The translations under genes and the position numbers were made by a program. From NCBI GenBank assembly GCA_943354075.1, contig CALRBL010000001.1, forward strand, positions 1 to 24,173: 24,173 nt of DNA, given 5' to 3'. The DNA is from Candidatus Nomurabacteria bacterium. Its GTDB lineage: Bacteria; Patescibacteriota; Minisyncoccia; Phycocordibacterales; CALRBL01. This document shows, in pieces, positions 3,080-23,103 of this stretch. How positions within the stretch are numbered: the stretch's first letter is position 1; the number at the start of each line of letters is the position of its first letter. A model generated the notes under the pieces. That model searched no databases and was not told the origin of the DNA. It saw nothing but the letters and a program-made list of their open reading frames with translations.

Positions 3080-3108
3080 AGGGGGAGTATATCAGAATCC
3101 AAAATTTG

Positions 3109-3180
3109 GGCGACTAGAGAGAATCGAACTCTCGAATTTGGCACCACAAACCAATGTTTTACCACTAAACTATAGTCGCC
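3109..3180 (-). tRNA. tRNA-His(GUG) with genomic G-1; CCA not encoded
   Basis: Minus strand G-GCGACTA...TTGGT-TTGTGGT-GCCAA...GAGAG-TTCGATT-CTCTC-TAGTCGC-C folds as a cloverleaf. Confidence 0.95.
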
Positions 3181-3596
3181 ATACCCTGCAAAATCAGCAC
3201 CTTACTGAACTTTTGCTTGCTTACACTATCATGATGTACCAGATGATGGCAATTGTGGCAAAGCCAGGCTAGATTTTCTATACTCACATTGGTATGGTCT
3301 TGATCAACATGATGCACAGCTAAAACTCGCACATCTTTCTCTTTACACATTAAACAAACTTGTGAAATAGAGCTGCCGAGTAAGATCTTTCTGTATCTTG
3401 AATAACCATCTTTCCAATTTTTATGTCTATCTCCTGCATACTGTGTATTTCTCCATTTTGTCTGACATGACTTAGAGCAAAAATACTTTTTACTTTTAGA
3501 ACGTTTAATCTGGGTTAGTGTTTTATAGATTTCTTTTGAGCAGGAATAGCACTCTATGAAAACACCTGTTTTACAATATATTCTTTGTATGCTCAT
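3165..3596 (-). CDS. Zn-finger HNH endonuclease-like protein (stop inside tRNA-His)
   Basis: CYSC..FCSKSC, CLMC, HHVDQDHTNVSIENLAWLCHNCHHLVH; ATGA overlap with the upstream paralog. Confidence 0.85.
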   Translation of the reverse strand: MSIQRIYCKTGVFIECYSCSKEIYKTLTQIKRSKSKKYFCSKSCQTKWRNTQYAGDRHKNWKDGYSRYRKILLGSSISQVCLMCKEKDVRVLAVHHVDQDHTNVSIENLAWLCHNCHHLVHHDSVSKQKFSKVLILQGMATIV

Positions 3597-4084
3597 ATTT
3601 TTGATAATAATTCCCTATTAACTTCTTGGTAATGATGGACTAAAAAGTGGCAATTGTAGCAAAGCCACGTTAAATTACTAATTGAGTTATTCTTTCTATT
3701 CCAATCTACATGATGCGCAACTAAAATTTTAGTATTATCCTTCGTACACAGAAGACACGAAGGAACTCCACCCTTTCGTAATAAAATATTTTTATAGGCA
3801 AATTCTCCATTTTTCCAATTTCCATGACCAGCTTCTCTCTGCTGAGGATTAAGCCAATTTAGATTACAGGCATGTGAACAAAAATAATTCTTACTCTTGG
3901 ATCTATTAAGATCTCTTAGTGATTTATATATTTGCTTAGAACAGACAGTACACTTTACAAGGCTTCCTTTTCTTCTACCCACATCACTACATTTTCTTGA
4001 ACAACAAATACCAACTCCACGTTTCAACCACGATGGTTTAGCATAAAATTTATTTAGACAAGTTTTGCATAAAATCTGTGACAT
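3593..4084 (-). CDS. Zn-finger HNH endonuclease-like protein
   Basis: CKTC..CCSRKC, CTVC..FCSHAC, CLLC, HHVDWNRKNNSISNLTWLCYNCHFLVH; TAAAAT (4091-4096) 6 nt upstream. Confidence 0.87.
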   Translation of the reverse strand: MSQILCKTCLNKFYAKPSWLKRGVGICCSRKCSDVGRRKGSLVKCTVCSKQIYKSLRDLNRSKSKNYFCSHACNLNWLNPQQREAGHGNWKNGEFAYKNILLRKGGVPSCLLCTKDNTKILVAHHVDWNRKNNSISNLTWLCYNCHFLVHHYQEVNRELLSKI

Positions 4085-4121
4085 CTTCCAATTTTACCAA
4101 ATAAAATATCATCGAGACAAC

Positions 4122-4151
4122 AAAATAACCCAACATACACTGGGTTATTTT
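4122..4151. terminator. Intrinsic terminator downstream of tRNA-Leu (probably bidirectional)
   Basis: Perfect 11-bp inverted repeat AAAATAACCCA-8 nt-TGGGTTATTTT. Confidence 0.7.
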
Positions 4152-4167
4152 ATCTTTTCTTTATTTG

Positions 4168-4250
4168 TGCGCGAGAGAGGACTTGCACCTCCACGCCCTT
4201 ACGGGCACACCCACCTCAAGGGTGCTTGGCTACTGTTACAACACTCGCGC
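4168..4250 (-). tRNA. tRNA-Leu(GAG), long variable arm
   Basis: GCGCGAG/CTCGCGC acceptor, CACCC-TTGAGGT-GGGTG, variable arm GCCC-GTAA-GGGC, T arm GGAGG-TGCAAGT-CCTCT. Confidence 0.92.
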
Positions 4251-4280
4251 ATGACGGCCAGTATAGGCCAAACCTTTCTT

Positions 4281-4754
4281 TTATTCAATAACCTCCAAAA
4301 GGAGATCAAAACGATAATCAGTATCACCAATCTTTCCCGGAACCGCAGGATACGGACTCACCTTCTCGAGAGTGATCTTAGTGCTTCCTACATAAAAGGA
4401 AGTTCCCTCTTCAACATCTTTTGAAGTGACGTGTTCACCTTCGAGTGAATAAATACTCAAAGAGACTACCGCCCTTCCCGCTTGGATACATTGCACACTC
4501 TCGGGACATCGACTGTCTTCCTTGATAGCAGAAGGCTCAATCAAAATATCATTGTATGCGATACGTTCACGAAAAGATGCGGTCACCTTCTTGCTTCCCG
4601 GGGTCACCACAGCATCAGGAACCACACTGTCGGTAGACGTAGCGATGACAACAGGAACGTTTTCAGGTACCGCTTTCGGCGGATTAATGAGGATTGTCAG
4701 TAAAATGATGAGGAGTGCGATGAGTGCTACGAGAATGAAAAGATGTTTTTTCAT
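4281..4754 (-). CDS. Hypothetical exported/anchored protein with DSRCP-x3-QC motif
   Basis: N-terminal hydrophobic helix, Cys pair EDSRCPESVQCIQAG, TAATG overlap with rplS. Confidence 0.7.
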   Translation of the reverse strand: MKKHLFILVALIALLIILLTILINPPKAVPENVPVVIATSTDSVVPDAVVTPGSKKVTASFRERIAYNDILIEPSAIKEDSRCPESVQCIQAGRAVVSLSIYSLEGEHVTSKDVEEGTSFYVGSTKITLEKVSPYPAVPGKIGDTDYRFDLLLEVIE

Positions 4755-5188
4755 TATTCAACAGAAGCTTCGGCAGGAGCGGCGGCGACAGCAGCAACTG
4801 CTTTAACAGTCTTTGCATTTCGCATCTGACGGCTGATTTCTTTAGCAGCTTTGTCACGGATGTAGTAGAGCTTGGCTCGGCGAACCTTAGCGCTTCGTAC
4901 CACTTCGATCTTGTCGATCATTGGAGAGTAAAGTGGGAAAATTCGTTCTACTCCTACTCCTTCAGTAACTTTTCGTACAGTGAAAGTAGCTCCAGCTTCG
5001 GTGCCATGCTTTCGTGCAAGAATAAGACCTTCAAAGATCTGAAGTCGGATCTTTCCCTTTTCATTGATGATCTGGTGAACCTTTACTACATCTCCGGAAC
5101 GGAAAGTAAGCGCCTTTCGTTCTTCAGGGTTAATAACGTTCAATTTGACTGCCTTTACGTGTGCTTCTTTTTTAGGTTTTCCTGCCAT
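4754..5188 (-). CDS. rplS: 50S ribosomal protein L19
   Basis: FRSGDVVKVH, QIFEG, TFTVRK..GVGVERIFPLYSP, KVRRAKLYYIR. Confidence 0.98.
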   Translation of the reverse strand: MAGKPKKEAHVKAVKLNVINPEERKALTFRSGDVVKVHQIINEKGKIRLQIFEGLILARKHGTEAGATFTVRKVTEGVGVERIFPLYSPMIDKIEVVRSAKVRRAKLYYIRDKAAKEISRQMRNAKTVKAVAAVAAAPAEASVE

Positions 5189-5218
5189 ATATATGTAAAT
5201 TAAGTGACTTGGACTTTA

Positions 5219-5971
5219 TCACACGAGCTTGGAAAGAGCAAATGTGAAGTCATCAGGATAGGGGGCTTCTATAGTGACTTCGTTGTTTTCCATGTCGGTA
5301 AAGGTAATTTCCCTAGAATGAAGGGCGAGGCGCTTGAAACCAAGAAGAGGTTCCCGTTTTGGGGCATACAAAGGATCGGCGACCAAAGGATGGTTGATAG
5401 CCTTAAAATGGACACGGATCTGGTGGGTACGCCCGGTCAAAGGAGATACTTCGATGAGTGTCACGTCCGTTGCAAGATTCTCTGTATCGAGCCGGTTCAA
5501 CACCTTAAAATGCGTCACTGCGTCTCGAGTCTCTCCCCTGCCTCCACGCTGTGCCGACCACAGACGAAAATCTTTTCGAGAACGAGCGATAGGACGATCG
5601 ATAACACCATCGTCTTCTTTAATAATTCCATATACAAACGCATGATATTTCTTTTCGATTGATCGATCTTGAAACTGTCGCTTCAAATGATTGAACCCTT
5701 CCTGAGTAAGAGCAATAAGCATCACACCAGACGTGTCGCGGTCCAAACGATGCACAATACCAGGACGCTTGATGGGCATCTTAGCAGTATCAGCAAATAC
5801 GATAGGCTCCCCCACTTCTGCCGCCTGCGGAAAGTGTTCGGTAACCCAATCCGAAAGAGTCACTTCTTCGGTGCGACCATCACTATGCACAACCAAACCC
5901 GCCGGCTTGTTGATGGCGAGGATGTGGGAGTCTTGATGGAGGATGGTGATTTTATTCTTCTTTGAAGACAT
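5219..5971 (-). CDS. RluA-family pseudouridine synthase
   Basis: INKPAGLVVH, GIVHRLDRDTSG (catalytic Asp), TGRTHQIRVH, DPLY, LALH; no S4 domain. Confidence 0.95.
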   Translation of the reverse strand: MSSKKNKITILHQDSHILAINKPAGLVVHSDGRTEEVTLSDWVTEHFPQAAEVGEPIVFADTAKMPIKRPGIVHRLDRDTSGVMLIALTQEGFNHLKRQFQDRSIEKKYHAFVYGIIKEDDGVIDRPIARSRKDFRLWSAQRGGRGETRDAVTHFKVLNRLDTENLATDVTLIEVSPLTGRTHQIRVHFKAINHPLVADPLYAPKREPLLGFKRLALHSREITFTDMENNEVTIEAPYPDDFTFALSKLV

Positions 5972-5984
5972 ATGTTGCTACCAT

Positions 5985-6021
5985 AACAGAAAAGGGCCTG
6001 CACATCCATGTGCAGGCCCTT
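5985..6021 (-). terminator. Intrinsic terminator of the ClpP-like gene
   Basis: Perfect inverted repeat AAGGGCCTGCACAT/ATGTGCAGGCCCTT (5992-6021), followed on the minus strand by TTCTGTT. Confidence 0.75.
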
Positions 6022-6562
6022 ACAACACTTCATCCGCCAATTCCGCCGTAATCGCTTGTTCCCAAGTGAAGCTGGTATCCCCTTTGTCAGCGAGGATATG
6101 AGCAACCTGCTCATCAGTGAGTTTGGTTCGCAATTTCAGCAATGCAGCTTTTTTCTTATTAAGAACAAGTAACCGTCGATATGCCTTACGAGGAATCCTC
6201 CCTTCAGAATCGAGATGGGCCGAAGAAAGCGAGAGTTGAATCGGATGGATCTTTATCCTAAATCCTTCGGTCAAAGGAACTAATCTCTTCTTGCAAGAGA
6301 TAAAGACATAGGCGGCTGCAGAAGCAAGGAGTTCTCCCTTCGCTTTTGCAACCACTTGCTTCTTACTCGCAAGAATAAGATCGATGAGTTCGAACGCCTT
6401 TGAAGGATCCCCTCCGCGACAATATCCGAACTCAAAGATAACCTCATCACCTTTCGCATCTCGAAACCTTTCGATGATCTCTCGAAACTGATCAGCTGAA
6501 GTCAGTTCCGTCGTAGTATCAGCACTTTCGTCGTGCCGCCCTATCAGAATAGTCGTTTTCAT
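6020..6562 (-). CDS. Divergent ClpP-like serine peptidase
   Basis: CRGGD (cf. SPGG), LASAAA (Ser), IKIHP (His) and GDTSFTWEQAITAELADEVL (cf. DRFLSAPEAVEYGLVD) occur in ClpP order; purine-rich AGAAAGGGG upstream. Confidence 0.7.
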   Translation of the reverse strand: MKTTILIGRHDESADTTTELTSADQFREIIERFRDAKGDEVIFEFGYCRGGDPSKAFELIDLILASKKQVVAKAKGELLASAAAYVFISCKKRLVPLTEGFRIKIHPIQLSLSSAHLDSEGRIPRKAYRRLLVLNKKKAALLKLRTKLTDEQVAHILADKGDTSFTWEQAITAELADEVL

Positions 6563-6602
6563 CTTTACCCCTTTCTAAGGTTGATTGTTGATTTTTTACA
6601 GT

Positions 6603-6617
6603 AAGTGTGTCACACTT
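6603..6617. promoter_or_regulatory. Operator-like palindrome between divergent genes
   Basis: AAGTGTG-T-CACACTT, a perfect 7-1-7 dyad. Confidence 0.4.
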
Positions 6618-6688
6618 CCACACTGAACCTAGCATACATTGTGCTGGGGGACAACAACACAACAAAACAAAACAAAGAAGAAAGAAGT

Positions 6689-6886
6689 ATGCTAAAAAGT
6701 AACCTGACACCGATCCGTACCCAACGAGCCCTTGAAATAGCCATGGGAACTCGCCCCTGGGGAGCCCCGCCAAGTCTCATCGGGTGCGCACCACTGTTCA
6801 CCTCGGAAGACGACCTCGGCGTCAAGCTCACCTCCTCGGTGGAACCGAGGTCAGCAAAAAAGCGCAAATCGCGCAAAAAGAAGTAG
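6689..6886 (+). CDS. Small hypothetical protein (65 aa) with Lys/Arg-rich tail
   Basis: ATG follows a C/A-rich leader; ends SAKKRKSRKKK; a plus-strand terminator follows. No family recognised. Confidence 0.4.
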   Translation: MLKSNLTPIRTQRALEIAMGTRPWGAPPSLIGCAPLFTSEDDLGVKLTSSVEPRSAKKRKSRKKK

Positions 6887-6905
6887 CCTCGGCTACGACC
6901 CATCC

Positions 6906-6950
6906 AACCGCAGTCACCCGCCCCCGGCGAGCGACTGCGGTTTTTTTCTT
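6906..6950 (+). terminator. Intrinsic terminator
   Basis: AACCGCAGTC...GACTGCGGTT stem with inner CGCC/GGCG pairing, then TTTTTTTCTT. Confidence 0.7.
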
Positions 6951-6973
6951 TCCTTATTTTTACCGAAAATCTG

Positions 6974-7046
6974 TGCGCGATGCAGGACTCGAACCTGCGA
7001 CCTTCTCAGTGTAAATGAGTTGCTCTACCAACTGAGCTAATCGCGC
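6974..7046 (-). tRNA. tRNA-Val(UAC)
   Basis: GCGCGAT/ATCGCGC, GCTC-AGTTGGTA-GAGC, loop TTTACAC, GCAGG-TTCGAGT-CCTGC. Confidence 0.95.
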
Positions 7047-7084
7047 TTGAAACTCTTCGAACGTTTTTCTTTATATCATACTTA

Positions 7085-7159
7085 TGGTGCCCCCGCTAGG
7101 AATCGAACCTAGAATAACGGCTTAGAAGTCCGCAGTTATATCCATTTAACTACAGGGGC
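7085..7159 (-). tRNA. tRNA-Arg(UCU), CCA encoded
   Basis: GCCCCTG/CGGGGGC-A-CCA, loop CTTCTAA, CTAGG-TTCGATT-CCTAG. Confidence 0.95.
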
Positions 7160-7164
7160 ATTGG

Positions 7165-7194
7165 GTACAACATCGGTTGTACAAAGCGATCATA
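7165..7194 (-). promoter_or_regulatory. Putative -10 box and 5' leader hairpin of the tRNA-Arg/tRNA-Val transcript
   Basis: TATGAT (7189-7194), 6 nt, then GTACAAC-CGAT-GTTGTAC hairpin (7182-7165), 5 nt before the tRNA. Confidence 0.5.
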
Positions 7195-7199
7195 ACGGA

Positions 7200-7439
7200 T
7201 TACTGTCGATTCTCAAAGAAAGCAGAAATACGATCCACGCGCTTAATGGTGGATTCACCATCCTCCGAAGCATTTCCTCCAACCGATGAACTTTCTCCAC
7301 TTTTTCCTAAAGAGAAGAAGAGATGCGTGCTCACACCGATCACTGCAAGAACAAGTATAGTAAATACGATCATAAGACGCTTCCAATCACGATGAGGATG
7401 TATAGGATTCCATGAAAAGTGAATGTGTTTTTGATTCAT
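7200..7439 (-). CDS. Small single-TM protein at the end of the pilMNO operon
   Basis: Starts 1 nt after the pilO-like stop; PHRDW followed by a TM helix. Confidence 0.65.
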   Translation of the reverse strand: MNQKHIHFSWNPIHPHRDWKRLMIVFTILVLAVIGVSTHLFFSLGKSGESSSVGGNASEDGESTIKRVDRISAFFENRQ

Positions 7440-7440
7440 A

Positions 7441-7929
7441 TTATTCTGTGGTTAAAACAGGAACCGAAAGTGTGAATGATCCTTCCCATCCGGAAGTAAA
7501 CATCACTCGTGATAATACTAGAGGATATTTTGATCGTTCAAAGCGTGCCAAAAGTGTATTAAGATTTTCAAACGATCCATTAGCTTCGATAACCATACTG
7601 AGCATCTTGATGGGACTCGATCCATCAGAAACACTCTCACTCAAAGAAAGTGTATCGCATGAAAGTGAGAGCTCTGCGCAGGCAGATTCGATCGACGAAA
7701 CAAACTCTGCCTGTTCTCCATCTTTTATGAAATACGAAGAAAGCTTTCCTCGAGCTTCCCCTTCTTCTTTGATAAGATTATCAGCATTTTTAATTTCTCC
7801 GGCAAAGTTATGTCGCTTCTCCCCCATCTTGATAAGAGAATAGAAAAGATACGCATAGAGTGCACCGAGAAGTACCACACTACCCGCGAGAGTGATGAGA
7901 GTGATTGTAGTTGGTGATAATTTTTTCAT
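7441..7929 (-). CDS. Type IV pilus PilO-like protein
   Basis: N-terminal TM plus coiled region; FVSSIE..., EANGSFENLNTLLARFE (cf. GxYxxLxxFLxxLE); follows pilM and pilN. Confidence 0.7.
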   Translation of the reverse strand: MKKLSPTTITLITLAGSVVLLGALYAYLFYSLIKMGEKRHNFAGEIKNADNLIKEEGEARGKLSSYFIKDGEQAEFVSSIESACAELSLSCDTLSLSESVSDGSSPIKMLSMVIEANGSFENLNTLLARFERSKYPLVLSRVMFTSGWEGSFTLSVPVLTTE

Positions 7930-7933
7930 ATAG

Positions 7934-8467
7934 TTATGGTAGTGCTATCTGAATAGTAAACGGAGCATCGACACTCTTTGCAATATTATCGATGGGAAGC
8001 GAAGCATTCTTAAATTCTTTCTGTGTACGAAGAGTGGAATGGAATGAGATGAGACTCGCACGTGTCGCCGCTTTACCCCTGATCGTCACTTGCTTATCAA
8101 CAATTTCAATCGCTTCTATTACTATGCCGTCATTTTTTTTGGCAAAAATATCGCTGATGATCTTCCCTGCCGGATAGGTTGCTTTCATTTCGGAAACACG
8201 CACTTCGAGATAATCAACTAAGACTTTGTTCGATGCGGAAAGTCTGGCAGCTTCATCGATCGAAGCTTTCGAATTCTTCTGTTCAGCTTCTTGCTTCTTC
8301 TCTTCCAAATTGTTTATCTCCGAATTCTGACTTACATATGAAGGAAAGAGTCCGACCCCCGCGATAACAAGTAGAATACACAAGAAAGAAACAATGGTAA
8401 CAGAAAGTCGAAGATTGTATTCTTTGATCAAAATCTTTTTTTCTTCCTGTGGTAATAGATTAAGCAT
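7934..8467 (-). CDS. pilN: Type IV pilus PilN-like protein
   Basis: MLNLLP N-terminus, TM helix, VTIRGKA, F-x-N-A-x-L region; follows pilM. Confidence 0.8.
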   Translation of the reverse strand: MLNLLPQEEKKILIKEYNLRLSVTIVSFLCILLVIAGVGLFPSYVSQNSEINNLEEKKQEAEQKNSKASIDEAARLSASNKVLVDYLEVRVSEMKATYPAGKIISDIFAKKNDGIVIEAIEIVDKQVTIRGKAATRASLISFHSTLRTQKEFKNASLPIDNIAKSVDAPFTIQIALP

Positions 8468-8476
8468 AGTTTTGTA

Positions 8477-9547
8477 TTATTCGTTTTCAGGGAGTGCAAG
8501 TCCAATTGCAGTACCGAAATTAATTGCCATCGTAAGTGGAACAGGTGGCACATATTCCTCAACAGACGCAATATTCGCCCACACGTTACCCGCCTCAATC
8601 GGCACATGAAGCGACTGCGCAAGATATTCTTTGAATCCCAACGTAAGCGCTTCTTTACCAGCAAGAATAATTTTCTGAATGGATTCAGTTGCATCTACAC
8701 TGACACGATGTTTGTTCCAATATATGTATACTTTTTCCATCTCCTGACGGAAAGCAGATGCCGTACTAATGAGCGCAGATAATACTTCATTGTCATCGGT
8801 ACGAGTAAATCCTTTTGATTGCTTGAGCTTTTCAGCTTCTTCCACACTTAGAGAAAATTGTTTTTGAAGTGCTGTCACGAAATCAATTGACCCAATAGGA
8901 ACTGTTGAAGTGAATTGCACCGCACCCTTACTGATAATAAACACGGTCGTCTTGGTGGTATGAATATTAACAATCAGATACGTATTCTGATCACCACGAG
9001 TAACCAGTGCTCTCGATAATCCTTGTGCTTCGATGAGAAAAGAAACAGGAGTAAGACCACACTCATGAAAGAATGTGATGTACGCATTGATCACCTCAAG
9101 AGGAAGCACGGTCACGGCAACTTTTACAAAACCTTCTTTGGTACTATCACCGATGAGACGATAATCAAAAATAACATCTGCACCGGAAAGAGGTACATTT
9201 TCCTCCAGAGAAAATTCGATCGAGCTTCTCATACTTGTTTCCGTACCAAATTCGATCTCAGTATCAAAAAGATATGCCTTGTCTTCAGGTAAAGAAGCCT
9301 TGATGTATTCGAGTTTGTATTCCTTCTTCCACTTTTTAAGAATTTCTTTTGCCTCTTTGTGATCTCCTTCTGCGATAAGAAATGGCTCTGTGAGAGTGGC
9401 TTCAGCATACTTCCCTACTTCGAGGCGTGATCGATCGGTGATCTCTATCATACGAATAGCGAGAGGAGAAATATCTATACCAACCGACGCAAGGTCTAGG
9501 AATTTTGGTGCGGGAAAATATTTTGAGAAAAAGATATGCGCTGACAT
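8477..9547 (-). CDS. pilM: Type IV pilus assembly protein PilM (actin-like)
   Basis: VGIDIS, VPLS..DVIFDY, IEAQGLSR, PIGSIDF, ILAGKEA, AIGLAL. Confidence 0.9.
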   Translation of the reverse strand: MSAHIFFSKYFPAPKFLDLASVGIDISPLAIRMIEITDRSRLEVGKYAEATLTEPFLIAEGDHKEAKEILKKWKKEYKLEYIKASLPEDKAYLFDTEIEFGTETSMRSSIEFSLEENVPLSGADVIFDYRLIGDSTKEGFVKVAVTVLPLEVINAYITFFHECGLTPVSFLIEAQGLSRALVTRGDQNTYLIVNIHTTKTTVFIISKGAVQFTSTVPIGSIDFVTALQKQFSLSVEEAEKLKQSKGFTRTDDNEVLSALISTASAFRQEMEKVYIYWNKHRVSVDATESIQKIILAGKEALTLGFKEYLAQSLHVPIEAGNVWANIASVEEYVPPVPLTMAINFGTAIGLALPENE

Positions 9548-9572
9548 CTCTTAAATTATATCACAGAGCGTA

Positions 9573-9902
9573 CTAGGAAAGACGACTACCTGAAGCAATA
9601 GGAGAAGTAGGTTCGATGAGAGAAAAGTTTCCTTCAGTATCAGAAACAGCCATGATCATACCGTTGCTTTCAAAACCTCGAATGGTACGTGGCTCAAGAT
9701 TGGTAACAAAAGGAAATTTCTTTCCGACAAGTGTTTGAGGATCGGGAAAATGTATCGCGATACCAGAGAGGATCTGACGTGGAGCTTCTTCTTTGAAATC
9801 CACCGTGAATCTGATGAGCTTGTCTGCACCTTCTACTTTTTCAGCAGTGAGAATCTCTCCAATCTTTATTTCTACCTTTTTGAAATCGTCTATATTGATC
9901 AT
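9573..9902 (-). CDS. Stand-alone tRNA-binding OB-fold protein (MetG C-terminal/Trbp111/CsaA family)
   Basis: INIDDFKKVEIKIGEI, GADKL, RQILSGI, NLEPRTIRGFESNGMI. Confidence 0.9.
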   Translation of the reverse strand: MINIDDFKKVEIKIGEILTAEKVEGADKLIRFTVDFKEEAPRQILSGIAIHFPDPQTLVGKKFPFVTNLEPRTIRGFESNGMIMAVSDTEGNFSLIEPTSPIASGSRLS

Positions 9903-10297
9903 GCGACAAGTATATCGTTATTTTTTCTGTCTAAAAAGCTCTTGAGAATGAGTGCTGCTGCAGAAGCATGAGTCTTCTCTCCCCCGCCCTGAATATGGCG
10001 TGCTTCGACGGAAGTCATGAACTCGGGTTCAAAATGTACCGGCATCCCCGCTTTGTCTGCAAGCTCTTCTGCAAAAAGACGTGCTTTTTTCATGATGGGA
10101 TTATCTACTCCTTCAAAATTCTTTGATTCACCAATGACGATCTCGGACACCTTCTTTTCGGAGACAATCGACAATACGTCGTCGATAAGTCCCGCCCCGC
10201 CCATGAGAGTGGCCTGTGGGAACGCCATGGTGCCATCATCATTCGACACACTGATACCAACATGCTTTTCGCCAAAATCGATGCCGAGGTATTTCAT
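9899..10297 (-). CDS. ruvX: YqgF/RuvX family nuclease
   Basis: MKYLGIDFGEKHVGISVS, IVIG, EFMTSVEA, ASAAALILKSFLD. True start 10297 has TACTAT 6 nt upstream; the longer ORF-track start is antisense to the HNH gene. Confidence 0.92.
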   Translation of the reverse strand: MKYLGIDFGEKHVGISVSNDDGTMAFPQATLMGGAGLIDDVLSIVSEKKVSEIVIGESKNFEGVDNPIMKKARLFAEELADKAGMPVHFEPEFMTSVEARHIQGGGEKTHASAAALILKSFLDRKNNDILVA

Positions 10298-10339
10298 GCG
10301 TCCATAGTATGCGGAAACACAGATTGATACAATAGCAGA

Positions 10340-10828
10340 ATGTCTGAACAATATATCAGAAAACCTAATACACAATGTAGAATATGCAAAAAACCAATCT
10401 ACCGAAGACCTTGCCAAATAATGCAAGGTGGAGTATTTTGTGGAGTAGTCTGCTACGGTAATTCTAATAGAAAAGAAACTCCATGCCTCGTCTGTGGCAA
10501 ACCAATCATGGCTAGTTTTAATAAGAAGACCTGTAGCAGAAGCTGTGCAAACATTCATAGAGCCGGCATTACCTACAAAAACAACAGACCACACGATAAA
10601 GTAAAGTATCAAAGGGGCCTGAAAGTAAGGCTGTTGGATGATAGAGGAGAAAAATGTGCGCGCTGCGAATATGCAAAAATCGAGATATTGCAGATACATC
10701 ATAAGGATAGGGATAGGGAAAATAATGAGCTATCCAATCTGGAACTTATTTGCCCCAACTGTCATTATGAAGAACATTTTTTAGAAAAAAGTTGGTTAAA
10801 AAAACGGAGGAGTGGCTCGAGAGGTTGA
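10340..10828 (+). CDS. Zn-finger HNH endonuclease-like protein (stop inside tRNA-Ser)
   Basis: CRIC..FCGVVC, CLVC..TCSRSC, CARC, QIHHKDRDRENNELSNLELICPNCHYEEH; TACAAT 6 nt upstream. Confidence 0.88.
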   Translation: MSEQYIRKPNTQCRICKKPIYRRPCQIMQGGVFCGVVCYGNSNRKETPCLVCGKPIMASFNKKTCSRSCANIHRAGITYKNNRPHDKVKYQRGLKVRLLDDRGEKCARCEYAKIEILQIHHKDRDRENNELSNLELICPNCHYEEHFLEKSWLKKRRSGSRG

Positions 10829-10893
10829 TGGCACCGCACTTGAAATGCGGCATCCGGGAAACTGGATCGTGAGTTCGAATCTCACCTCCTCCG
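10806..10893 (+). tRNA. tRNA-Ser(UGA)
   Basis: GGAGGAG/CTCCTCC-G, CCGCA-CTTGAAA-TGCGG, long variable arm ATCCGG-GAAA-CTGGAT, GTGAG-TTCGAAT-CTCAC. Confidence 0.95.
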
Positions 10894-10937
10894 CACAGTA
10901 ATACTATCGGGTTGATTGAACATCAGATTGAATGGAG

Positions 10938-10964
10938 AACGCAAGGTAAAACCTAGCGTTTTTT
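10938..10964 (+). terminator. Probable terminator after tRNA-Ser
   Basis: AACGC-A-AGGT-AAA-ACCT-A-GCGTT followed by TTTT. Confidence 0.55.
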
Positions 10965-10976
10965 CATTTAGTGAGC

Positions 10977-11026
10977 AGTTCTGAAGTAGGAAACAAAGAA
11001 AATGCAGTTTTAAGCACTTCAGAACT
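10977..11026. repeat. 11-bp inverted repeat with 28-nt spacer
   Basis: AGTTCTGAAGT (10977-10987) and ACTTCAGAACT (11016-11026). Confidence 0.6.
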
Positions 11027-11050
11027 TGTTAAATCTACTTTCTTAAAAAG

Positions 11051-11112
11051 TGGACAGAGGTTGAAATTAGTGTAATCTACCCCTGAACCTCAACCCACCT
11101 GAAAGGAGGTGA
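11051..11112 (+). promoter_or_regulatory. Putative sigma70-like promoter and strong SD of the XRE gene
   Basis: TGGACA-16 nt-TAATCT (11051-11078); AAGGAGGTGA (11103-11112) just before ATG 11116. Confidence 0.55.
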
Positions 11113-11115
11113 AAA

Positions 11116-11496
11116 ATGAAAGAGTATCTTCTACATGACACATTGGGTCAGTACCTGTGCAATCTACGAACGTGTGCTGGCTTATCCCAAACCGAACTGG
11201 CAAGCAAAATCCGTCCGACTCACAAAAACGGAAACAAGTTTGTCTCTCGAATGGAAAAAGATGAGCAAACTCCAACCGCAGAAGAATTGGTCAAGATCGC
11301 CGAAGCAGTTGGATGCGACAAGGACATGCTACTGGAGGCAAGCCATTACTTTGCTCAAGGTAACAGTGCAGACGACAAGATCGACCTTCGCCCTCTCCTT
11401 ACCAAGCTTGGGCAGGCTGCAGACCTCGTCACTCCCCAGCACCTCGCAGTCGCGATTAAGCATTTCGTTGCCCTCAGTAAAGTCGGAGGGGTATGA
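11116..11496 (+). CDS. XRE/HTH_3-family transcriptional regulator
   Basis: LGQYLCNLRTCAGLSQTELA...VSRMEKDEQTPTAEELVKIAEAVG pattern, strong SD, downstream terminator. Confidence 0.85.
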   Translation: MKEYLLHDTLGQYLCNLRTCAGLSQTELASKIRPTHKNGNKFVSRMEKDEQTPTAEELVKIAEAVGCDKDMLLEASHYFAQGNSADDKIDLRPLLTKLGQAADLVTPQHLAVAIKHFVALSKVGGV

Positions 11497-11504
11497 TCCC
11501 TCAG

Positions 11505-11539
11505 AACGCTCCGGTTTCGGCTGGGGCGTTTTTTATTTT
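11505..11539 (+). terminator. Intrinsic terminator (UUCG loop)
   Basis: AACGCTCCGGT-TTCG-GCTGGGGCGTT (11 bp with G:U pairs), then TTTTATTTT. Confidence 0.8.
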
Positions 11540-11651
11540 ATTCAGATATTTACCAAGAGAAAGTAAGTTCTCCTTAATTATTTTCCAATCCACAGTTCTG
11601 AACGCATCTAACCACTCCCGCAAAATATGACTTTCCTTGTATAATATGACT

Positions 11652-12152
11652 ATGGAAATCCCCGAAGTAAAACTAAACAGAGCAAAAGAACTCATTCACA
11701 CAAGTAGGCATATTGCACTTGCTACCACAAACGCAGACGGTTCACCTCACAATAGTCCTGTTAGATTTTTCTATGATGAAAAACTTGAAAATATATATTG
11801 GGGTTCAAATACCGAAGCGTTGCATTCTCAAAACATATTAAGAGCGGGTCAGATATTTGCGGTTTTATTCGACAGAATAGAATTTGGTGGTGTGTATATA
11901 AAATGTGAAGATGGTCATATACTTGAAGGCTATGAATTAGAAGCAGGACTTCAGATTACTAACGCTTCTAGGACAAAGGAGGGACAACAAAAAATTACCC
12001 CAGATTATTATTCAGCAGGAAGTGTCCAAAAAATGTGGTCAGCAAAAATTACTAATTTGTGGATAAATATGCCCATGAGAGATGAAAATGGCTATATATT
12101 AAGAGATGAGAGAGTGGAATTGGAAAGAAGTATTTTACTAAAAAATATTTAA
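11652..12152 (+). CDS. Pyridoxamine 5'-phosphate oxidase-like (FMN-binding split barrel) protein
   Basis: HIALATTNADGSPHNSPVRF, YWGS...HSQNI. Start 11652 has TATAAT 6 nt upstream. Confidence 0.8.
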   Translation: MEIPEVKLNRAKELIHTSRHIALATTNADGSPHNSPVRFFYDEKLENIYWGSNTEALHSQNILRAGQIFAVLFDRIEFGGVYIKCEDGHILEGYELEAGLQITNASRTKEGQQKITPDYYSAGSVQKMWSAKITNLWINMPMRDENGYILRDERVELERSILLKNI

Positions 12153-12212
12153 ATATAAATAGACAGATACGTATATTTGACCACTAAAACGAGGAGGGGT
12201 ATTATATTACAT

Positions 12213-12485
12213 ATGTCTGATCTCCAATTTGAAGAAAATAATGTTTCAGCATTTCAATCAAGAATAATCCTTGGTAAGGCAGTAACACCCAAGATGATCA
12301 CCTTTCTCATCAATAGGGGTATTGTCAAAGATCAGAAAACTGCCGGAAAATTTCTACTTGGTATATGTATAATTTTTATACTTGCCTCTATTTTAATACT
12401 TGCCGTATTTGTTTTTGATGTAAATCTTACAAAAAAAGATACCCGCAACGGTCCAGGAATAGGACCCCTAAAAGAAAGAATATGA
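12213..12485 (+). CDS. Hypothetical single-TM protein
   Basis: Start MSDLQFEE has TATTAT 7 nt upstream; one TM helix; ATGA overlap with the pilin. Confidence 0.65.
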   Translation: MSDLQFEENNVSAFQSRIILGKAVTPKMITFLINRGIVKDQKTAGKFLLGICIIFILASILILAVFVFDVNLTKKDTRNGPGIGPLKERI

Positions 12486-12958
12486 GAAAAGGATTCACAT
12501 TAATAGAGCTGTTGGTTGTCATCTCCATTATCGGACTTTTATCAAGTATCGTATTAGCATCACTGAATACAGCAAGGCAAAAAGCTGAGATCGCAAAGGT
12601 AGCATCAGAAATGAAAAGTATCCAATTAGCGCTTGAATTGTATTATGACAGCAATAATGAATACCCTAATAATCCGCTATCAGATGTAAATCCATATAGC
12701 ACCGGAAATTTCACTTCTGGACTCGATCCTTTGGTCACTAGCGGATATCTTCCACTGGTTCCGACGTGGGACACAAATAAATATGAATACTTCTATTTTG
12801 TAGGTGACATACCTTTACTCGGTTATACTTGCGGAGGAGTGACCCCTACGTCTTACCTACTCGTCATAATAGATGTGGTAAACGCTTCAGTATTTCCTTT
12901 AGGTGTACTTGATGATGGTGTTGGTGGTCTTACAGGATACTACTGCATCTCTTCCTAG
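12482..12958 (+). CDS. Type IV pilin/pseudopilin (class III signal peptide)
   Basis: MRKG|FTLIELLVVISIIGLLSSIVLASL (G-1/F+1/E+5); C-terminal Cys pair. Confidence 0.93.
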   Translation: MRKGFTLIELLVVISIIGLLSSIVLASLNTARQKAEIAKVASEMKSIQLALELYYDSNNEYPNNPLSDVNPYSTGNFTSGLDPLVTSGYLPLVPTWDTNKYEYFYFVGDIPLLGYTCGGVTPTSYLLVIIDVVNASVFPLGVLDDGVGGLTGYYCISS

Positions 12959-12992
12959 TAGCTTACTCAGTAGCACGTGATATAATTCTTTT

Positions 12993-13466
12993 ATGGAATC
13001 AATGATCTCCTGGAAAGCATACGAGTACATTCACGAGCCTAAAAGTGCTGATTGGTATTGGGCACTTGGCATCATCGCACTTGCTGTCGCGGGAGCTGCG
13101 ATAATTTTCGGAAACTATATTTTCGCAATTCTCGTTCTCATCGTCGCGATTTCTCTTGCCATCCACGCACATCATCACTCCCCTCGTCTTGTCGACTTTC
13201 AACTGAATGAACGAGGAGTAAAGATCGATCATATTTTCTATCCCTACAAAACACTCGAATCATTTGATATCGAAACCCACGAGACCGAGATCGGAACTTT
13301 TGCTAAAATCTTCATCAAGTCCAAAAAAACCATGATGCCCCTCATCGTGATCCCTATAGCCGAGGTTCACCCTGAAGATGTGCGCGAATATCTTTCGATC
13401 TTTCTCGAAGAAGGTGAGCATACTGAAAGCGTGGGACATCGTCTGCTTGAATGGCTCGGATTTTAG
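12993..13466 (+). CDS. Conserved hypothetical 2-TM protein with C-terminal beta-rich (bPH-like) domain
   Basis: W-x-AYEY...DWYW, two TM helices, then FQLNERGVKID..YPY..F; TATAAT 6 nt upstream. Confidence 0.75.
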   Translation: MESMISWKAYEYIHEPKSADWYWALGIIALAVAGAAIIFGNYIFAILVLIVAISLAIHAHHHSPRLVDFQLNERGVKIDHIFYPYKTLESFDIETHETEIGTFAKIFIKSKKTMMPLIVIPIAEVHPEDVREYLSIFLEEGEHTESVGHRLLEWLGF

Positions 13467-13519
13467 TTTTATTTGATTTTTATATTGATACCCGTGCTCG
13501 CGGGTTATAAAATGAAGGG

Positions 13520-14194
13520 ATGGTGAGGAAGGAATTAAGAAGACAAGCCGAAAAATTGAGAGATGATGGGAAATCCTATCAAGATATCTCGCGTGAATTA
13601 GGTGTGGCAAAAAGTACGCTTTCGTATTGGTTTAATACTACCTCTCATTACTTGGACACATCAGAGAAACAACTGGAACATCTTAAAAGAGCTCGTATTT
13701 TGGCTCTAGAGGCAATACAAGATAAACAAACAAAGAAGAGGCTGGACTTGGAAAAAAGTGTTACTTTAGATTTTAGTGCTCGTGATATTAATTCACTCTT
13801 TACGAAGAAAATTGCTCTTTCTATGCTGTATTGGGCAGAAGGAACAAAGCACAAAAGAGCCGGAGGTCTAACCTTCACAAATACCGATCCCATGCTTATA
13901 AAAACATTTGTCTCACTTCTTAAAACCGTATTCGATATTGATCTATCAAAAATAAGATTGCGATTAGCCATACATAGTTACCACAATGAAAAAGAGTGTA
14001 AAATATTCTGGTCAAACCTTACAGGAATCGAGTTGGATCAATTCAATAAAACATACTTGAAACCAAGAAGTCTTACGAAGAAATTCCGGCAAAACTTCAT
14101 GGGAATCTGCTTTGTATATTATCCAAATGGTGGTATAAGAAAGGAGATATTAGAAATCGGCAGACAATATTGCAGCCACATATCGCTCCCGTAG
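13520..14194 (+). CDS. HTH + LAGLIDADG-like protein (stop inside tRNA-Arg)
   Basis: N-terminal HTH GKSYQDISRELGVAKSTLSYW; LAGLIDADG-like ALSMLYWAEG, then LTFTNTD..LIKTF; TAAAAT 6 nt upstream. Confidence 0.75.
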   Translation: MVRKELRRQAEKLRDDGKSYQDISRELGVAKSTLSYWFNTTSHYLDTSEKQLEHLKRARILALEAIQDKQTKKRLDLEKSVTLDFSARDINSLFTKKIALSMLYWAEGTKHKRAGGLTFTNTDPMLIKTFVSLLKTVFDIDLSKIRLRLAIHSYHNEKECKIFWSNLTGIELDQFNKTYLKPRSLTKKFRQNFMGICFVYYPNGGIRKEILEIGRQYCSHISLP

Positions 14195-14256
14195 TTAAAT
14201 GGATATAATAGTAGCTTGCGGAGTTACTGTTCCAAGTTCGATTCTTGGCGGGAGCA
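14185..14256 (+). tRNA. tRNA-Arg(GCG)
   Basis: GCTCCCG/CGGGAGC-A, D arm GTTA-AATGGATA-TAAT (like the Arg-UCU tRNA here), GTAGC-TTGCGGA-GTTAC, CCAAG-TTCGATT-CTTGG. Confidence 0.9.
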
Positions 14257-14302
14257 CATGATTACATTCAATAGGAGTATGTGGACTATATAAAATAGAC
14301 CA

Positions 14303-14340
14303 ACAAAAAAACCGCTCTACATTTGAGGCGGTTTTTTTGT
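14303..14340. terminator. Bidirectional terminator between tRNA-Arg and rpsT
   Basis: Perfect 13-bp inverted repeat ACAAAAAAACCGC/GCGGTTTTTTTGT. Confidence 0.85.
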
Positions 14341-21202: not shown

Positions 21203-21666
21203 TATATGCCCATCATATCAGGAAACTCGACAGTACGAATATGCTCGGAAACGAAAGAAAAACGAATGATTGGAGTAGTCGGTGGAAGTGCTTCAATGAC
21301 TCTTTCTGGCCATTCAACGAGAATGAGATGTGAAGGATCTTCAAGATCTCGCTCGAATCCAATAGCATTGAGTTCCTCTCCCGACTCGAGTCGATATGCG
21401 TCTATATGTATGAGCACTTTGAAAGGAAAATCTTCTCCTGCAACACGAGCGTCTATGGGATATCTTTTTTCTATAACAAAAGTGGGGCTGGTGACATGTT
21501 CAGATATACCAAGAAGCTCAGCAATACATTTTGTAAAAGCTGTTTTCCCAGAACCAAGATCTCCAGAAAAACCAAAGGTGTTTGAAGTAGGTTGTGCGCA
21601 AAGATATGCAACAAAAAGTTCTGCAACTTTTTTCGTATCAGAAAGAGAATGTGAAATATGAATCAT
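21202..21666 (-). CDS. tsaE: tRNA threonylcarbamoyladenosine biosynthesis ATPase
   Basis: GDLGSGKTAF, VTSPTFVI, HIDAYRL, LVEWPE. Confidence 0.95.
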   Translation of the reverse strand: MIHISHSLSDTKKVAELFVAYLCAQPTSNTFGFSGDLGSGKTAFTKCIAELLGISEHVTSPTFVIEKRYPIDARVAGEDFPFKVLIHIDAYRLESGEELNAIGFERDLEDPSHLILVEWPERVIEALPPTTPIIRFSFVSEHIRTVEFPDMMGI

Positions 21667-21680
21667 GTGGGGAGTATATA

Positions 21681-21716
21681 AAAAAACAGGCCGATGCGCG
21701 AACGCACCGGACTGTT
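21681..21716 (-). terminator. Probable terminator of the Gly-rich gene
   Basis: Imperfect AACAG-CCG-TGCG/CGCA-CGG-CTGTT hairpin with a T-run on the minus strand. Confidence 0.5.
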
Positions 21717-21749
21717 GTATTTTTTTGGGGGAATACCCCCGAATGAACT

Positions 21750-22907
21750 TTAGCGACCACCGCGGCTGTTGCGCATAGCAGAGAGAACTCCTCCTCCGCC
21801 ACCACCACTGCGCGATCCGCCGCCGGAACCAGAGGTGGTGGTAGTACGTTGCCCCCCACCACCGCGGCTGTTGCGCATAGCAGAGAGAACTCCTCCTCCG
21901 CCACCACTGGAACCGTTTCCTGTGGGGCGATATCCATTTGGATCGACCGCCGCGTTCCCCCCCTGCGGGAAGACGAGGCCAGACCCATTGCCGGGTGCGC
22001 GGATGCGCTCGGCAACAGAATTCGGGCCTAGCGGAGGAGGCACTCTTGGTGGACGACTCCCCGAAGGACCACTGGTGGTACCAGAGGTGCCACCAGTGCC
22101 ACCGCCGAAGTTGGCGTTGAGGCCGTTTGAACTGGAGGTCGTGTTCGTGTTCGTGGCATTGAGGTAGTTATCAATCTTGATGTTGATGTCTTGGTCCTGC
22201 CGTGACTGCTGATGCTGATTGCCCCCAGTATAACTGCTGTGATTTCCCCCCGAGTTACCCCAGGAGTAGCCGCCGCCACGTTGTGGTTCGCAATAAGGGC
22301 GAGGGCGGGGTACTGGCTCGCAGTAGGGTTCCGACTGCCGGTACACAACCCGCTGCGGGTAGTATTGCGGCGGCTCGATCCAGTTGCTGCGAGTCTCGCA
22401 GTGTTGCTGACGACCCGAATCCCAACCCCACCCTTGCTGACCGCTTTGGGAGAGGTTGACATCAACATGAAGGTTGATCAAGCTTCCGAGAAATGCCGTG
22501 GCTTGCTTGAAAAAACCCGGACGAGGAGGGTCAGGAGGAGACAACTTGCCCACATGGGGTTTCGGAGGCTCTTCACGATCATCGTCAGGAGGCACAGGGT
22601 TCTTGGTTTTCTTTCCGCCACCTTCCCAGATGGCGATGACGCCCGTGAACTCATCGGTGTCCATTTCTTTGGCGAAATCCTTCGCCTCTTTGTAGTCGAG
22701 CCGCGCACCGTCTTCCCCTTGTTTCCGGTCCAGCGAGTCTTTAATACTGGTCCCTTTGGGGGTGAAGATGTAGGTGACATCATCGATCTCTCGGGTGGCC
22801 TTAGCGGCCGCATCCCAAGTGTTGTATTTTTTGACCTCCGCGTTTGCGGGGCCGACGAACAGGGTGCTCATGATGAGCGCGAGGACGAGGGTGAGGTTGG
22901 TTTTCAT
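21750..22907 (-). CDS. Secreted low-complexity Gly/Ser/Pro/Gln-rich protein
   Basis: Start MKTNLTLVLALIMSTLFVGPANA|E (Sec signal, AxA site); GC-rich; GS-rich tail. No family recognised. Confidence 0.7.
   Translation of the reverse strand: MKTNLTLVLALIMSTLFVGPANAEVKKYNTWDAAAKATREIDDVTYIFTPKGTSIKDSLDRKQGEDGARLDYKEAKDFAKEMDTDEFTGVIAIWEGGGKKTKNPVPPDDDREEPPKPHVGKLSPPDPPRPGFFKQATAFLGSLINLHVDVNLSQSGQQGWGWDSGRQQHCETRSNWIEPPQYYPQRVVYRQSEPYCEPVPRPRPYCEPQRGGGYSWGNSGGNHSSYTGGNQHQQSRQDQDINIKIDNYLNATNTNTTSSSNGLNANFGGGTGGTSGTTSGPSGSRPPRVPPPLGPNSVAERIRAPGNGSGLVFPQGGNAAVDPNGYRPTGNGSSGGGGGVLSAMRNSRGGGGQRTTTTSGSGGGSRSGGGGGGVLSAMRNSRGGR
21756..21907. repeat. Two identical 50-bp in-frame direct repeats
   Basis: 21756-21805 is identical to 21858-21907 (offset 102); encodes GGGGVLSAMRNSRGG twice. 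Confidence 0.9.
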
Positions 22908-23103
22908 AGGACTGGAATCTTGTATCTTTCCAAGAGAAGTTTGTTGATGTATTACAGATCCCTCCACTAAAAATCGCACGAACTGCGGGTTTCAGAGGAG
23001 TGGAAAGGAAACTTTTTCGAGGTTGGATTTCGGGGACATCTTATCATATTTATGGCTAAAAGTCAATCCCTTCCCCGTTCCACACATAAGGTACAATGTT
23101 TAC

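Follow-up and report, generated by a model that had tools for sequence, protein, structure and literature searches.

The window studied here is a 24,173-nucleotide (nt) stretch of a Candidatus Nomurabacteria genome (assembly GCA_943354075.1, contig CALRBL010000001.1, positions 1 to 24,173). It carries four nuclease-like open reading frames (ORFs), P0001 to P0004, which are probably free-standing homing-type endonuclease genes occupying the 5′ leaders of single-copy tRNA genes. Every nuclease subfamily pairs with a single tRNA species on its own strand, and its 3′ end falls inside the tRNA or at most a few tens of nucleotides from the mature 5′ end. At a given site some close relatives have the nuclease gene and others lack it, and the catalytic residues are conserved. 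The genes lie outside any intron or intein, and their position relative to the tRNA is fixed. Because these pairings recur in hundreds of related genomes yet are missing from close relatives, they look like selfish “homing” genes for which the dispensable tRNA leader is a safe place to land. Moreover, conservation of the predicted start signals shows that the HNH cassettes bring their own leaderless-type promoter.

ARAGORN finds seven tRNA genes in the window, and in three of them (His, Ser and Arg) a same-strand ORF comes to its end (Table 1). An earlier sequence-only reading of this DNA had given coordinates and ORF/tRNA overlaps of 16, 23 and 10 nt, which we confirm; the overlap of P0001 with tRNA-His is 15 nt as called by ARAGORN and 16 nt if the encoded G-1 at 3180 is counted. 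The GC counts made by hand in that reading (19, 18, 17 and 31 of 60) proved exact, and the nuclease ORFs are AT-richer than core genes over their whole length, with 35.4, 32.5, 38.7 and 36.7% GC for P0001, P0002, P0003 and P0004 against 43.1% in the window and 47% in ruvX and ruvA. Their surroundings are core chromosome (L19, PilMN, RuvX, RuvA, PolA, TsaE). The assembly of this genome, referred to below as G000, is 70% complete with 26 tRNAs found; G001, G003 and G004 are its genus-mates.

Table 1. Nuclease genes, linked tRNA genes and candidate expression signals in the window
Feature	Position	Strand	Description
tRNA-His(gtg)	3108..3180	-	encoded G-1 at 3180 included
Proximal zinc-finger HNH nuclease gene P0001	3165..3596	-	143 aa; stop TAG in the D-loop of tRNA-His
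Distal zinc-finger HNH nuclease gene P0002	3593..4084	-	163 aa; in tandem, upstream of P0001
Promoter-like site, His cassette	4091..4120	-	TTGTCT, 18 nt, TG-extended TAAAAT 4096-4091, 6 nt to ATG at 4084
Terminator-like hairpin between tRNA-Leu(gag) and His cassette	4122..4151	.	11-pair stem, then T run
-10 box TACAAT (10328-10333) and 6-nt spacer, Ser cassette	10328..10339	+	putative leaderless-type promoter before ATG
Ser-type zinc-finger HNH nuclease gene P0003	10340..10828	+	162 aa; stop TGA 23 nt into tRNA-Ser
tRNA-Ser(tga)	10806..10894	+	unusual D-arm
Insert of 718 nt	13467..14184	+	missing in genus-mates G004 and G001
Promoter-like site, Arg cassette	13485..13513	+	TTGATA, 17 nt, TAAAAT 13508-13513, 6 nt to ATG
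Helix-turn-helix (HTH) + single LAGLIDADG-like domain gene P0004	13520..14194	+	224 aa; stop TAG 10 nt into tRNA-Arg
tRNA-Arg(gcg)	14185..14257	+	called by ARAGORN
Imperfect hairpin + T run after tRNA-Arg	14311..14339	+	read from the sequence; unlisted by the consensus scan

Association of nuclease genes with tRNA 5′ ends

The Ser-type HNH family, to which P0003 belongs, is large: the protein collection has at least 957 clusters of it, and a search of 185,579 species genomes gave 336 relatives. Among the best 80 of these 336 relatives, tRNA-Ser(tga) lies directly 3′ on the same strand at all 78 assessable loci, which represent many lineages of the candidate phyla radiation (CPR); the other two loci are cut at contig ends. 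Most stop codons fall in the range from 38 nt within the tRNA to 100 nt ahead of it, and one (L052) is 64 nt inside. Within the order, every P0001-like match precedes tRNA-His(gtg) and every P0003-like match precedes tRNA-Ser(tga). Correspondingly, the His-type HNH gene stands before tRNA-His at 23 of 23 loci in the class sample and in 5 of 5 relatives from the order, and 13 of the 23 class-level relatives have the stop at +15, as in P0001. The context upstream of the His-type genes varies (Leu-gag, Arg-tct or none), and the tRNA partner is constant.

The P0004 family, which occurs in 170 of the 401 genomes of the class and reaches seven copies in a genome, demonstrates the same arrangement with a wider choice of partners. 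In its best 29 loci all 32 copies abut a same-strand tRNA; the closest relatives of P0004 sit before Arg(gcg), others before Trp, Lys(ctt), Gly(gcc), Arg(tct), Ala(ggc) and Gln, and copies sometimes form tandem pairs. Among 20 weaker, lower-ranked members, 13 have a tRNA (Ile-tat, Gly, Gln, Met, Arg-tcg or Ala) within 60 nt, one lies 84 nt from a tRNA, one is broken, two are followed by a group I intron, and three have no called downstream tRNA, one of which (L269) carries a group I intron upstream, on the other strand.

At L266:1382-1680 and L267:1412-1678, group I introns (RF00028, 59-67 bits) directly follow P0004-family ORFs with no tRNA called by ARAGORN; the loci are probably tRNA genes split by an intron, with the nuclease gene bordering them on the 5′ side. 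Another locus, L143 (G180:C19), has an ARAGORN pseudo-tRNA fragment at ~1414-1444, just before the P0004-family gene that precedes tRNA-Trp, and this fragment may be a remnant of a disrupted target.

The layout is common to several nuclease families: HNH, the P0004 type, a LAGLIDADG_3 gene located elsewhere in G000 and a double-motif ORF of G025. The LAGLIDADG_3 gene, the fifth nuclease gene of G000, lies outside the window on contig C46 (L219:2545-3624, minus strand) and encodes 359 aa with HTH_3 and LAGLIDADG_3 domains (the latter with E 6.5e-8 and 33.2 bits, which passes the cut-off). It is unrelated to P0004, and its stop codon is placed 56 nt into tRNA-Ser(cga); this raises to 4 the number of tRNAs linked to such genes, out of 26 found in G000. 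The suggestion that two unrelated folds share the tRNA-leader layout within the window is borne out for HNH and for the HTH + LAGLIDADG-like type, the latter being sub-threshold in Pfam.

The double-motif ORF (204 aa) was observed at L014 (G025:C2:60991-64371), where it ends 1 nt before tRNA-Leu(gag); its double LAGLIDADG-like motifs were identified by eye, without a Pfam run. It is followed by an HNH-HNH-tRNA-His cassette, so that two nuclease–tRNA modules stand in a row.

Tabulating the homologs for their distance to tRNA, which the sequence-only reading had proposed, shows them to be tRNA-adjacent essentially throughout. This adjacency cannot be attributed to chance, since not more than ~6% of genes can be directly 5′ of one of 26 tRNAs and the family members adjoin tRNAs nearly without exception. 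The overlap, likewise, exceeds that of ordinary ORFs upstream of tRNAs: in G000 the nuclease ORFs adjoining a tRNA run into it in 4 of 4 cases, the C46 gene counted, while none of the seven ordinary ORFs (at least 79 aa, ending within 60 nt upstream of a tRNA) does so.

Empty alleles, tRNA divergence and promoters

Of 60 relatives, 12 gave HNH matches; in the class the figure was 31 of 401 genomes, with G000 counted. Empty alleles, which were to be sought at syntenic loci, are present both in the same genus and in environmental contigs. In G004 and G001 only 72 and 56 nt separate ruvX from tRNA-Ser, with no nuclease gene between them, and just 29 nt lie between tRNA-Arg(gcg) and the end of the gene preceding it. 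G004 is the nearest genome to G000 in 8 of 8 flanking proteins (RuvX 73%, tRNA_bind 77%, RuvA 83%; G003 and G001, 59-76%), and the only carriers of the Ser gene in the genus are G000 and the more distant G003. The occurrence of this gene in G000 and G003 and its absence from the nearer G004 imply at least two gains or losses within the genus, its phyletic pattern being discordant with the similarity of the flanking genes.

The same polymorphism is found in lake water. Contigs from two DNA runs join position 10299 to 10804, skipping the Ser gene; the tRNA of this empty allele is 100% identical to that of the window over 92 nt, and 98% identity extends over 191 nt when the downstream flank is included. 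A filled allele is present in another run at 91%. Broken copies of the nuclease genes occur in other genomes. Since clean empty alleles are common, the idea that the elements are hard to delete cleanly finds no support.

Other types of mobility were considered and rejected. Direct repeats (target-site duplications) flanking the inserts were not found, and no transposase domain was detected beyond a short HTH, which speaks against a transposon or insertion sequence. Intron-encoded homing was discarded because the window tRNAs are uninterrupted and the Rfam scan of the window returned tRNAs only, with no Intron_gpI match. Phage origin was discarded too: a single weak HNH match (to P0003) was found in a Vibrio phage, and none for P0004.

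The nuclease-linked tRNA genes of G000 are 63-83% identical to the empty alleles of genus-mates, compared with 82-99% for four other tRNAs (one-sided Mann–Whitney p = 4e-4, for values that are non-independent). tRNA-Ser(tga) has 72% and 63% identity to the empty alleles of G004 and G001 and 94% to the filled allele of G003. For tRNA-Arg(gcg) the identity to the empty alleles is 74% in both cases, and these two alleles are 88% identical to each other; for tRNA-His(gtg) it is 74-83%. The unlinked tRNA-Val, tRNA-Arg(tct), tRNA-Lys and tRNA-Leu(gag) show 88-97, 82-95, 94-99 and 82-90%, respectively. The view that the tRNA always travels with the nuclease gene was abandoned, as the identities of tRNA and HNH gene are uncorrelated (rho ~0), and the divergence within the genus is kept only as a hint of possible co-conversion or target-site escape.

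The sequence-only reading had supposed that the elements insert between a tRNA promoter and its tRNA, and had placed a -10 box exactly 6 nt before each ATG (TAAAAT 4096-4091 on the minus strand, TACAAT 10328-10333 and TAAAAT 13508-13513). The boxes are indeed so placed; their proposed origin is not supported. In the Ser family an extended -10 element (consensus TGGTATACT), 6 nt and a GTG or ATG start were recognised in 86 of 87 copies, with a spacing of exactly 6 nt in 83 and an upstream TG in 76; no Shine–Dalgarno-like sequence was found in any of the 87. By contrast, about 20 empty tRNA-Ser loci have dissimilar -10 boxes located roughly 5-17 nt or more from the tRNA. Since the Ser-family promoter is conserved across lineages and the boxes of empty loci are not alike, this predicted promoter belongs to the element and travels with it, and is not that of the resident tRNA. 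At the Arg site, the empty allele has only 29 nt between upstream gene and tRNA.

The “-10 plus 6 nt” rule is valid for the Ser type and, with TAnnnT 5-8 nt before an in-frame start in 23 of 30 relatives, for the His type; it fails for the P0004 type, where 10 of 32 copies follow it, a share not above the 42% seen among the ordinary long ORFs of G000. The latter value comes from G000 ORFs of at least 200 aa, where TAnnnT stands 5-8 nt ahead of a candidate start in 42% and only 18% have a Shine–Dalgarno-like sequence; the count is crude, as several candidate starts were permitted per ORF. Leaderless mRNAs may thus be common in this organism. From the earlier interpretation, then, selfish homing-type behaviour at tRNA leaders can be retained, and the origin of the promoter, the generality of the -10 rule and the difficulty of deletion are to be given up.

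A promoter consensus scan gave 29 sites against 24.3 expected from shuffled sequence, which is not above expectation, and for this reason single sites count only through their conservation. The terminator-like hairpin at 4122..4151 would insulate the His cassette from the upstream tRNA, and the hairpin at 14311..14339 is likely a terminator closing the Arg cassette. RNase P RNA and tmRNA were not found in the incomplete G000 assembly, and both are present in genus-mates. The best DNA sequencing runs contain not more than 16% of the sampled words.

Some other features of the window are mentioned for completeness. tRNA-Leu(gag) (4167-4250) is called by ARAGORN and is not reported by the Rfam tRNA model at the gathering threshold; tRNA-Ser(tga) has the lowest Rfam score (47 bits) of the six reported tRNAs. 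Positions 21600-22980 form a block of 55-62% GC inside the 43% GC window, and its long ORFs (21750-22979, minus strand; 22212-22970, plus strand) have no Pfam match, nor does the block contain an Rfam RNA. The region 11637-12600 is low in GC (31-37%) and contains a PNPOx-like ORF (11637-12152), from which 300 nt (11689-11988) are skipped in one lake-water contig, representing an indel polymorphism in a relative.

Domain structure of the proteins and alternative explanations

P0001, P0002 and P0003 belong to one zinc-ribbon + HNH family, with identities of 45% and 30%. Only P0003 reaches the Pfam HNH threshold (22.3 bits, cut-off 21.4; HNH_3 24.7 bits, cut-off 24.8), the scores of P0001 (16.4 and 17.7 bits) and P0002 (17.7 bits) being under the cut-offs. 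In an 18-member alignment including all three window copies the HH..N..N..H pattern and four cysteines are invariant (C106, C109, H120, H121, N133, C138, N140, C141, H142 and H146), so that the catalytic His/Asn/His and both CxxC zinc pairs of the beta-beta-alpha-metal motif are kept. P0001 is missing the ~25-30 N-terminal residues that form the first zinc ribbon in its 165-173 aa orthologs.

In G000, G025, G050 and G230 the distal His-type genes make up a single clade, and their proximal partners cluster with single-copy genes, which indicates that the pair is an inherited two-gene arrangement in this order. The tandem may have arisen by stacking of a second element, or the two genes may encode the two subunits of one (two-nickase) enzyme. 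A further ORF of 388 aa, seen at L183:69-1235 (minus strand) and L184 (genomes G414 and G253), resembles the HNH zinc ribbon in its first ~80 residues and matches the Pfam HNH_repeat (“homing endonuclease associated repeat”, E 3.6e-14); ARAGORN places a tRNA-His within its open frame.

The relatives of P0004 are annotated as “hypothetical protein” throughout. P0004 itself scores 16 bits against Pfam LAGLIDADG_3, under the cut-off of 22.5. In its AlphaFold model (pLDDT 87.8) residues 1-48 form a Tc3/resolvase-type HTH. For residues 91-223 the five best matches among 48,161 PDB chains are all LAGLIDADG domains, with VIA-align Z of 7.5 for I-DmoI, 7.2 for E-DreI, 7.0 for the Tli VMA intein and 6.9 and 6.5 for WhiA; values below 8 are in the grey zone of this tool. 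Foldseek gave no meaningful match in the PDB. The family motif LYWAEG has E107 and G108 invariant in 35 members. Taking together the sub-threshold Pfam score, the grey-zone fold matches, the empty Foldseek search and the invariant Glu-Gly, we use the label “LAGLIDADG-like” only.

A number of observations weigh against the proposal that these are homing genes. The Ser-type gene tree is star-like, with weak clustering of taxon labels (12 changes versus 14.9 when shuffled), and the closest host pairs have the most similar HNH genes, which means that much of the inheritance is vertical. A distance-correlation test for horizontal transfer (HNH versus PilM and tRNA_bind, rho 0.03 and 0.09) was dropped as evidence: it is without power, because in the control PilM and tRNA_bind are uncorrelated too (rho 0.08), the distances being saturated. 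The lake-water empty allele and the filled allele have identical tRNAs, so that gene and tRNA do not have to move together, and the linked tRNA-Arg and tRNA-His genes are unlike across distant genomes. The Ser-type proteins are 55-92% identical and seldom broken, which fits a host-useful function as well. The assignment of P0004 rests on Z of ~7 and a sub-threshold Pfam match, and WhiA is a case of LAGLIDADG domains that can be non-catalytic. Finally, the single RNA run matches only part of the tRNA.

Some of these facts would be expected if the genes were old residents, inherited vertically with repeated loss, perhaps once mobile but no longer moving, and kept since their deletion risks an essential tRNA and its only promoter. 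The vertical signal of the HNH tree, the semi-conserved neighbourhood of tRNA-Ser (tRNA_bind at 51 and PilM at 35 of the 80 loci), the shortened N-terminus of P0001 and the HNH promoter as the only evident promoter for the downstream tRNA are all in line with such relics. We nevertheless consider this explanation unlikely, given that the closest relative and the environmental contigs have clean empty alleles with short-leader promoters of their own, that the upstream context of His-type genes differs and their tRNA partner never does, that the ORFs are AT-rich relative to the host, that at least three unrelated nuclease families converge on the same niche, and that the catalytic residues are invariant.

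Less probable still is the domestication of these proteins by the host, whether as WhiA-like transcription regulators or as factors of tRNA maturation or quality control acting at the tRNA gene. The strict pairing of one protein subfamily with one tRNA, the high conservation of the Ser-type proteins, the WhiA domains among the best structural matches of P0004, and the N-terminal HTH and zinc ribbons, which suggest sequence-specific DNA binding, could all be read in this way. However, most genomes, including the nearest relative, lack the proteins, as follows from the occurrence of the HNH and P0004 families given above; in addition, the nuclease catalytic residues are invariant, broken copies exist, and tandem stacking is typical of selfish genes.

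Phages and their hosts often contend over tRNA genes, a field with published work on SegB/Septu and PARIS, and HNH nucleases are generally frequent in defence systems. The window ORFs might be nucleases of conflict or defence, aimed for example at invading DNA with the same tRNA gene, and would then use the tRNA operon for expression only. This appears very improbable: partner genes and a defence-island context are absent from the core chromosome that makes up the window, a need for expression leaves the exact junction with the tRNA 5′ end unexplained, and the phage matches amount to the single weak one mentioned for P0003. Homing at tRNA leaders therefore remains the explanation that we prefer.

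Possible mechanism, known systems and significance

How such homing might proceed can be outlined as follows. The enzyme would recognise the conserved tRNA gene, or the promoter/tRNA junction of the empty allele, and cut or nick there; recombinational repair from a filled allele, acquired as foreign DNA, would then copy the gene in. The insertion would be harmless because RNase P frees the tRNA from the nuclease–tRNA transcript, so that RNase P would play the role that splicing has for intron-borne homing genes. The stop codon inside the tRNA may have its own significance: RNase P cleavage would leave an mRNA without a stop codon, and its handling by tmRNA would hold nuclease levels down.

A broader picture can be drawn only tentatively, and we regard it, taken as a whole, as possible rather than probable. 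In this picture the tRNA 5′ leaders of Patescibacteria would constitute a general, so far undescribed niche of homing endonucleases, in which RNase P cleavage replaces splicing and neither ribozyme nor intein is needed. Nuclease families would have radiated through switching of tRNA partners, and the leaderless promoter of the HNH type would have supplanted that of the tRNA itself, making an essential tRNA dependent on a parasite. The output of nuclease would be set by a race between translation and RNase P, the processed transcripts being stop-less and tmRNA-tagged, and attack by the enzyme would accelerate the evolution of the targeted tRNA genes.

Homing endonucleases are thought to survive within self-splicing introns or inteins, or between phage genes. 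The closest known case to the arrangement described here is SegB of phage T4, a free-standing GIY-YIG homing endonuclease located in the T4 tRNA gene cluster, whose 27-bp recognition site includes a conserved tRNA motif, the T-psi-C stem-loop; SegB is missing from related genomes and is inherited preferentially with neighbouring tRNA markers (PMC2330249). The likeness consists in a homing nuclease gene that is embedded among tRNA genes without an intron or intein. However, SegB is a GIY-YIG enzyme of a phage genome, spreading in co-infections, while the genes considered here are of HNH or LAGLIDADG-like type and reside in bacterial chromosomes. Here each gene is joined to the 5′ end of one single-copy cellular tRNA, often reading into it, and whole families are diversified by tRNA partner. 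Homing has been demonstrated for SegB, while here we infer it.

The nucleases of phage T5 are HNH-type and encoded in the T5 tRNA gene region, in which they would be similar to the window genes; they are phage-borne nicking enzymes, and are not known to abut a tRNA 5′ end at a fixed distance or to have their stop codon within a tRNA. That T5 encodes further site-specific nucleases is given here after a 2004 study (pmid 15456135) as it is cited in the SegB paper (PMC2330249).

Within CPR bacteria, LAGLIDADG homing endonucleases occur in rRNA insertions and spacers (PMC8172020; PMC11809585, citing Tsurumaki et al. 2024). The group of organisms is the same, and in both cases stable-RNA genes are concerned, with RNA processing rendering the insertion harmless; the difference is that those genes are inside rRNA genes (mostly in introns or insertion sequences) or between them, while ours are outside the mature RNA, in the tRNA leader. 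Homing endonucleases are also known from group I introns of bacterial tRNA genes (review PMC3984707). There, too, a tRNA gene is targeted and the insert is removed by RNA processing, but here no ribozyme is involved, the nuclease gene precedes a tRNA that is itself uninterrupted, and RNase P would take the place of self-splicing. A full-text literature search, which was not exhaustive, revealed no published description of nuclease genes in bacterial tRNA leaders.

If our interpretation is correct, chromosomal genes placed in tRNA leaders and relying on ordinary RNase P would represent a third solution for keeping homing genes harmless. It would also explain recurrent “hypothetical proteins” of the CPR, as the P0004 family is found in ~40% of the sampled class genomes. 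For annotation, it should be taken into account that nuclease ORFs overlapping tRNAs are easily mis-called or dropped. These families represent compact natural nucleases whose targets may be guessed from the tRNA partner, which is useful for enzyme discovery. We suppose that selfish nucleases may shape both the expression and the evolutionary rate of tRNA genes in the smallest bacteria.

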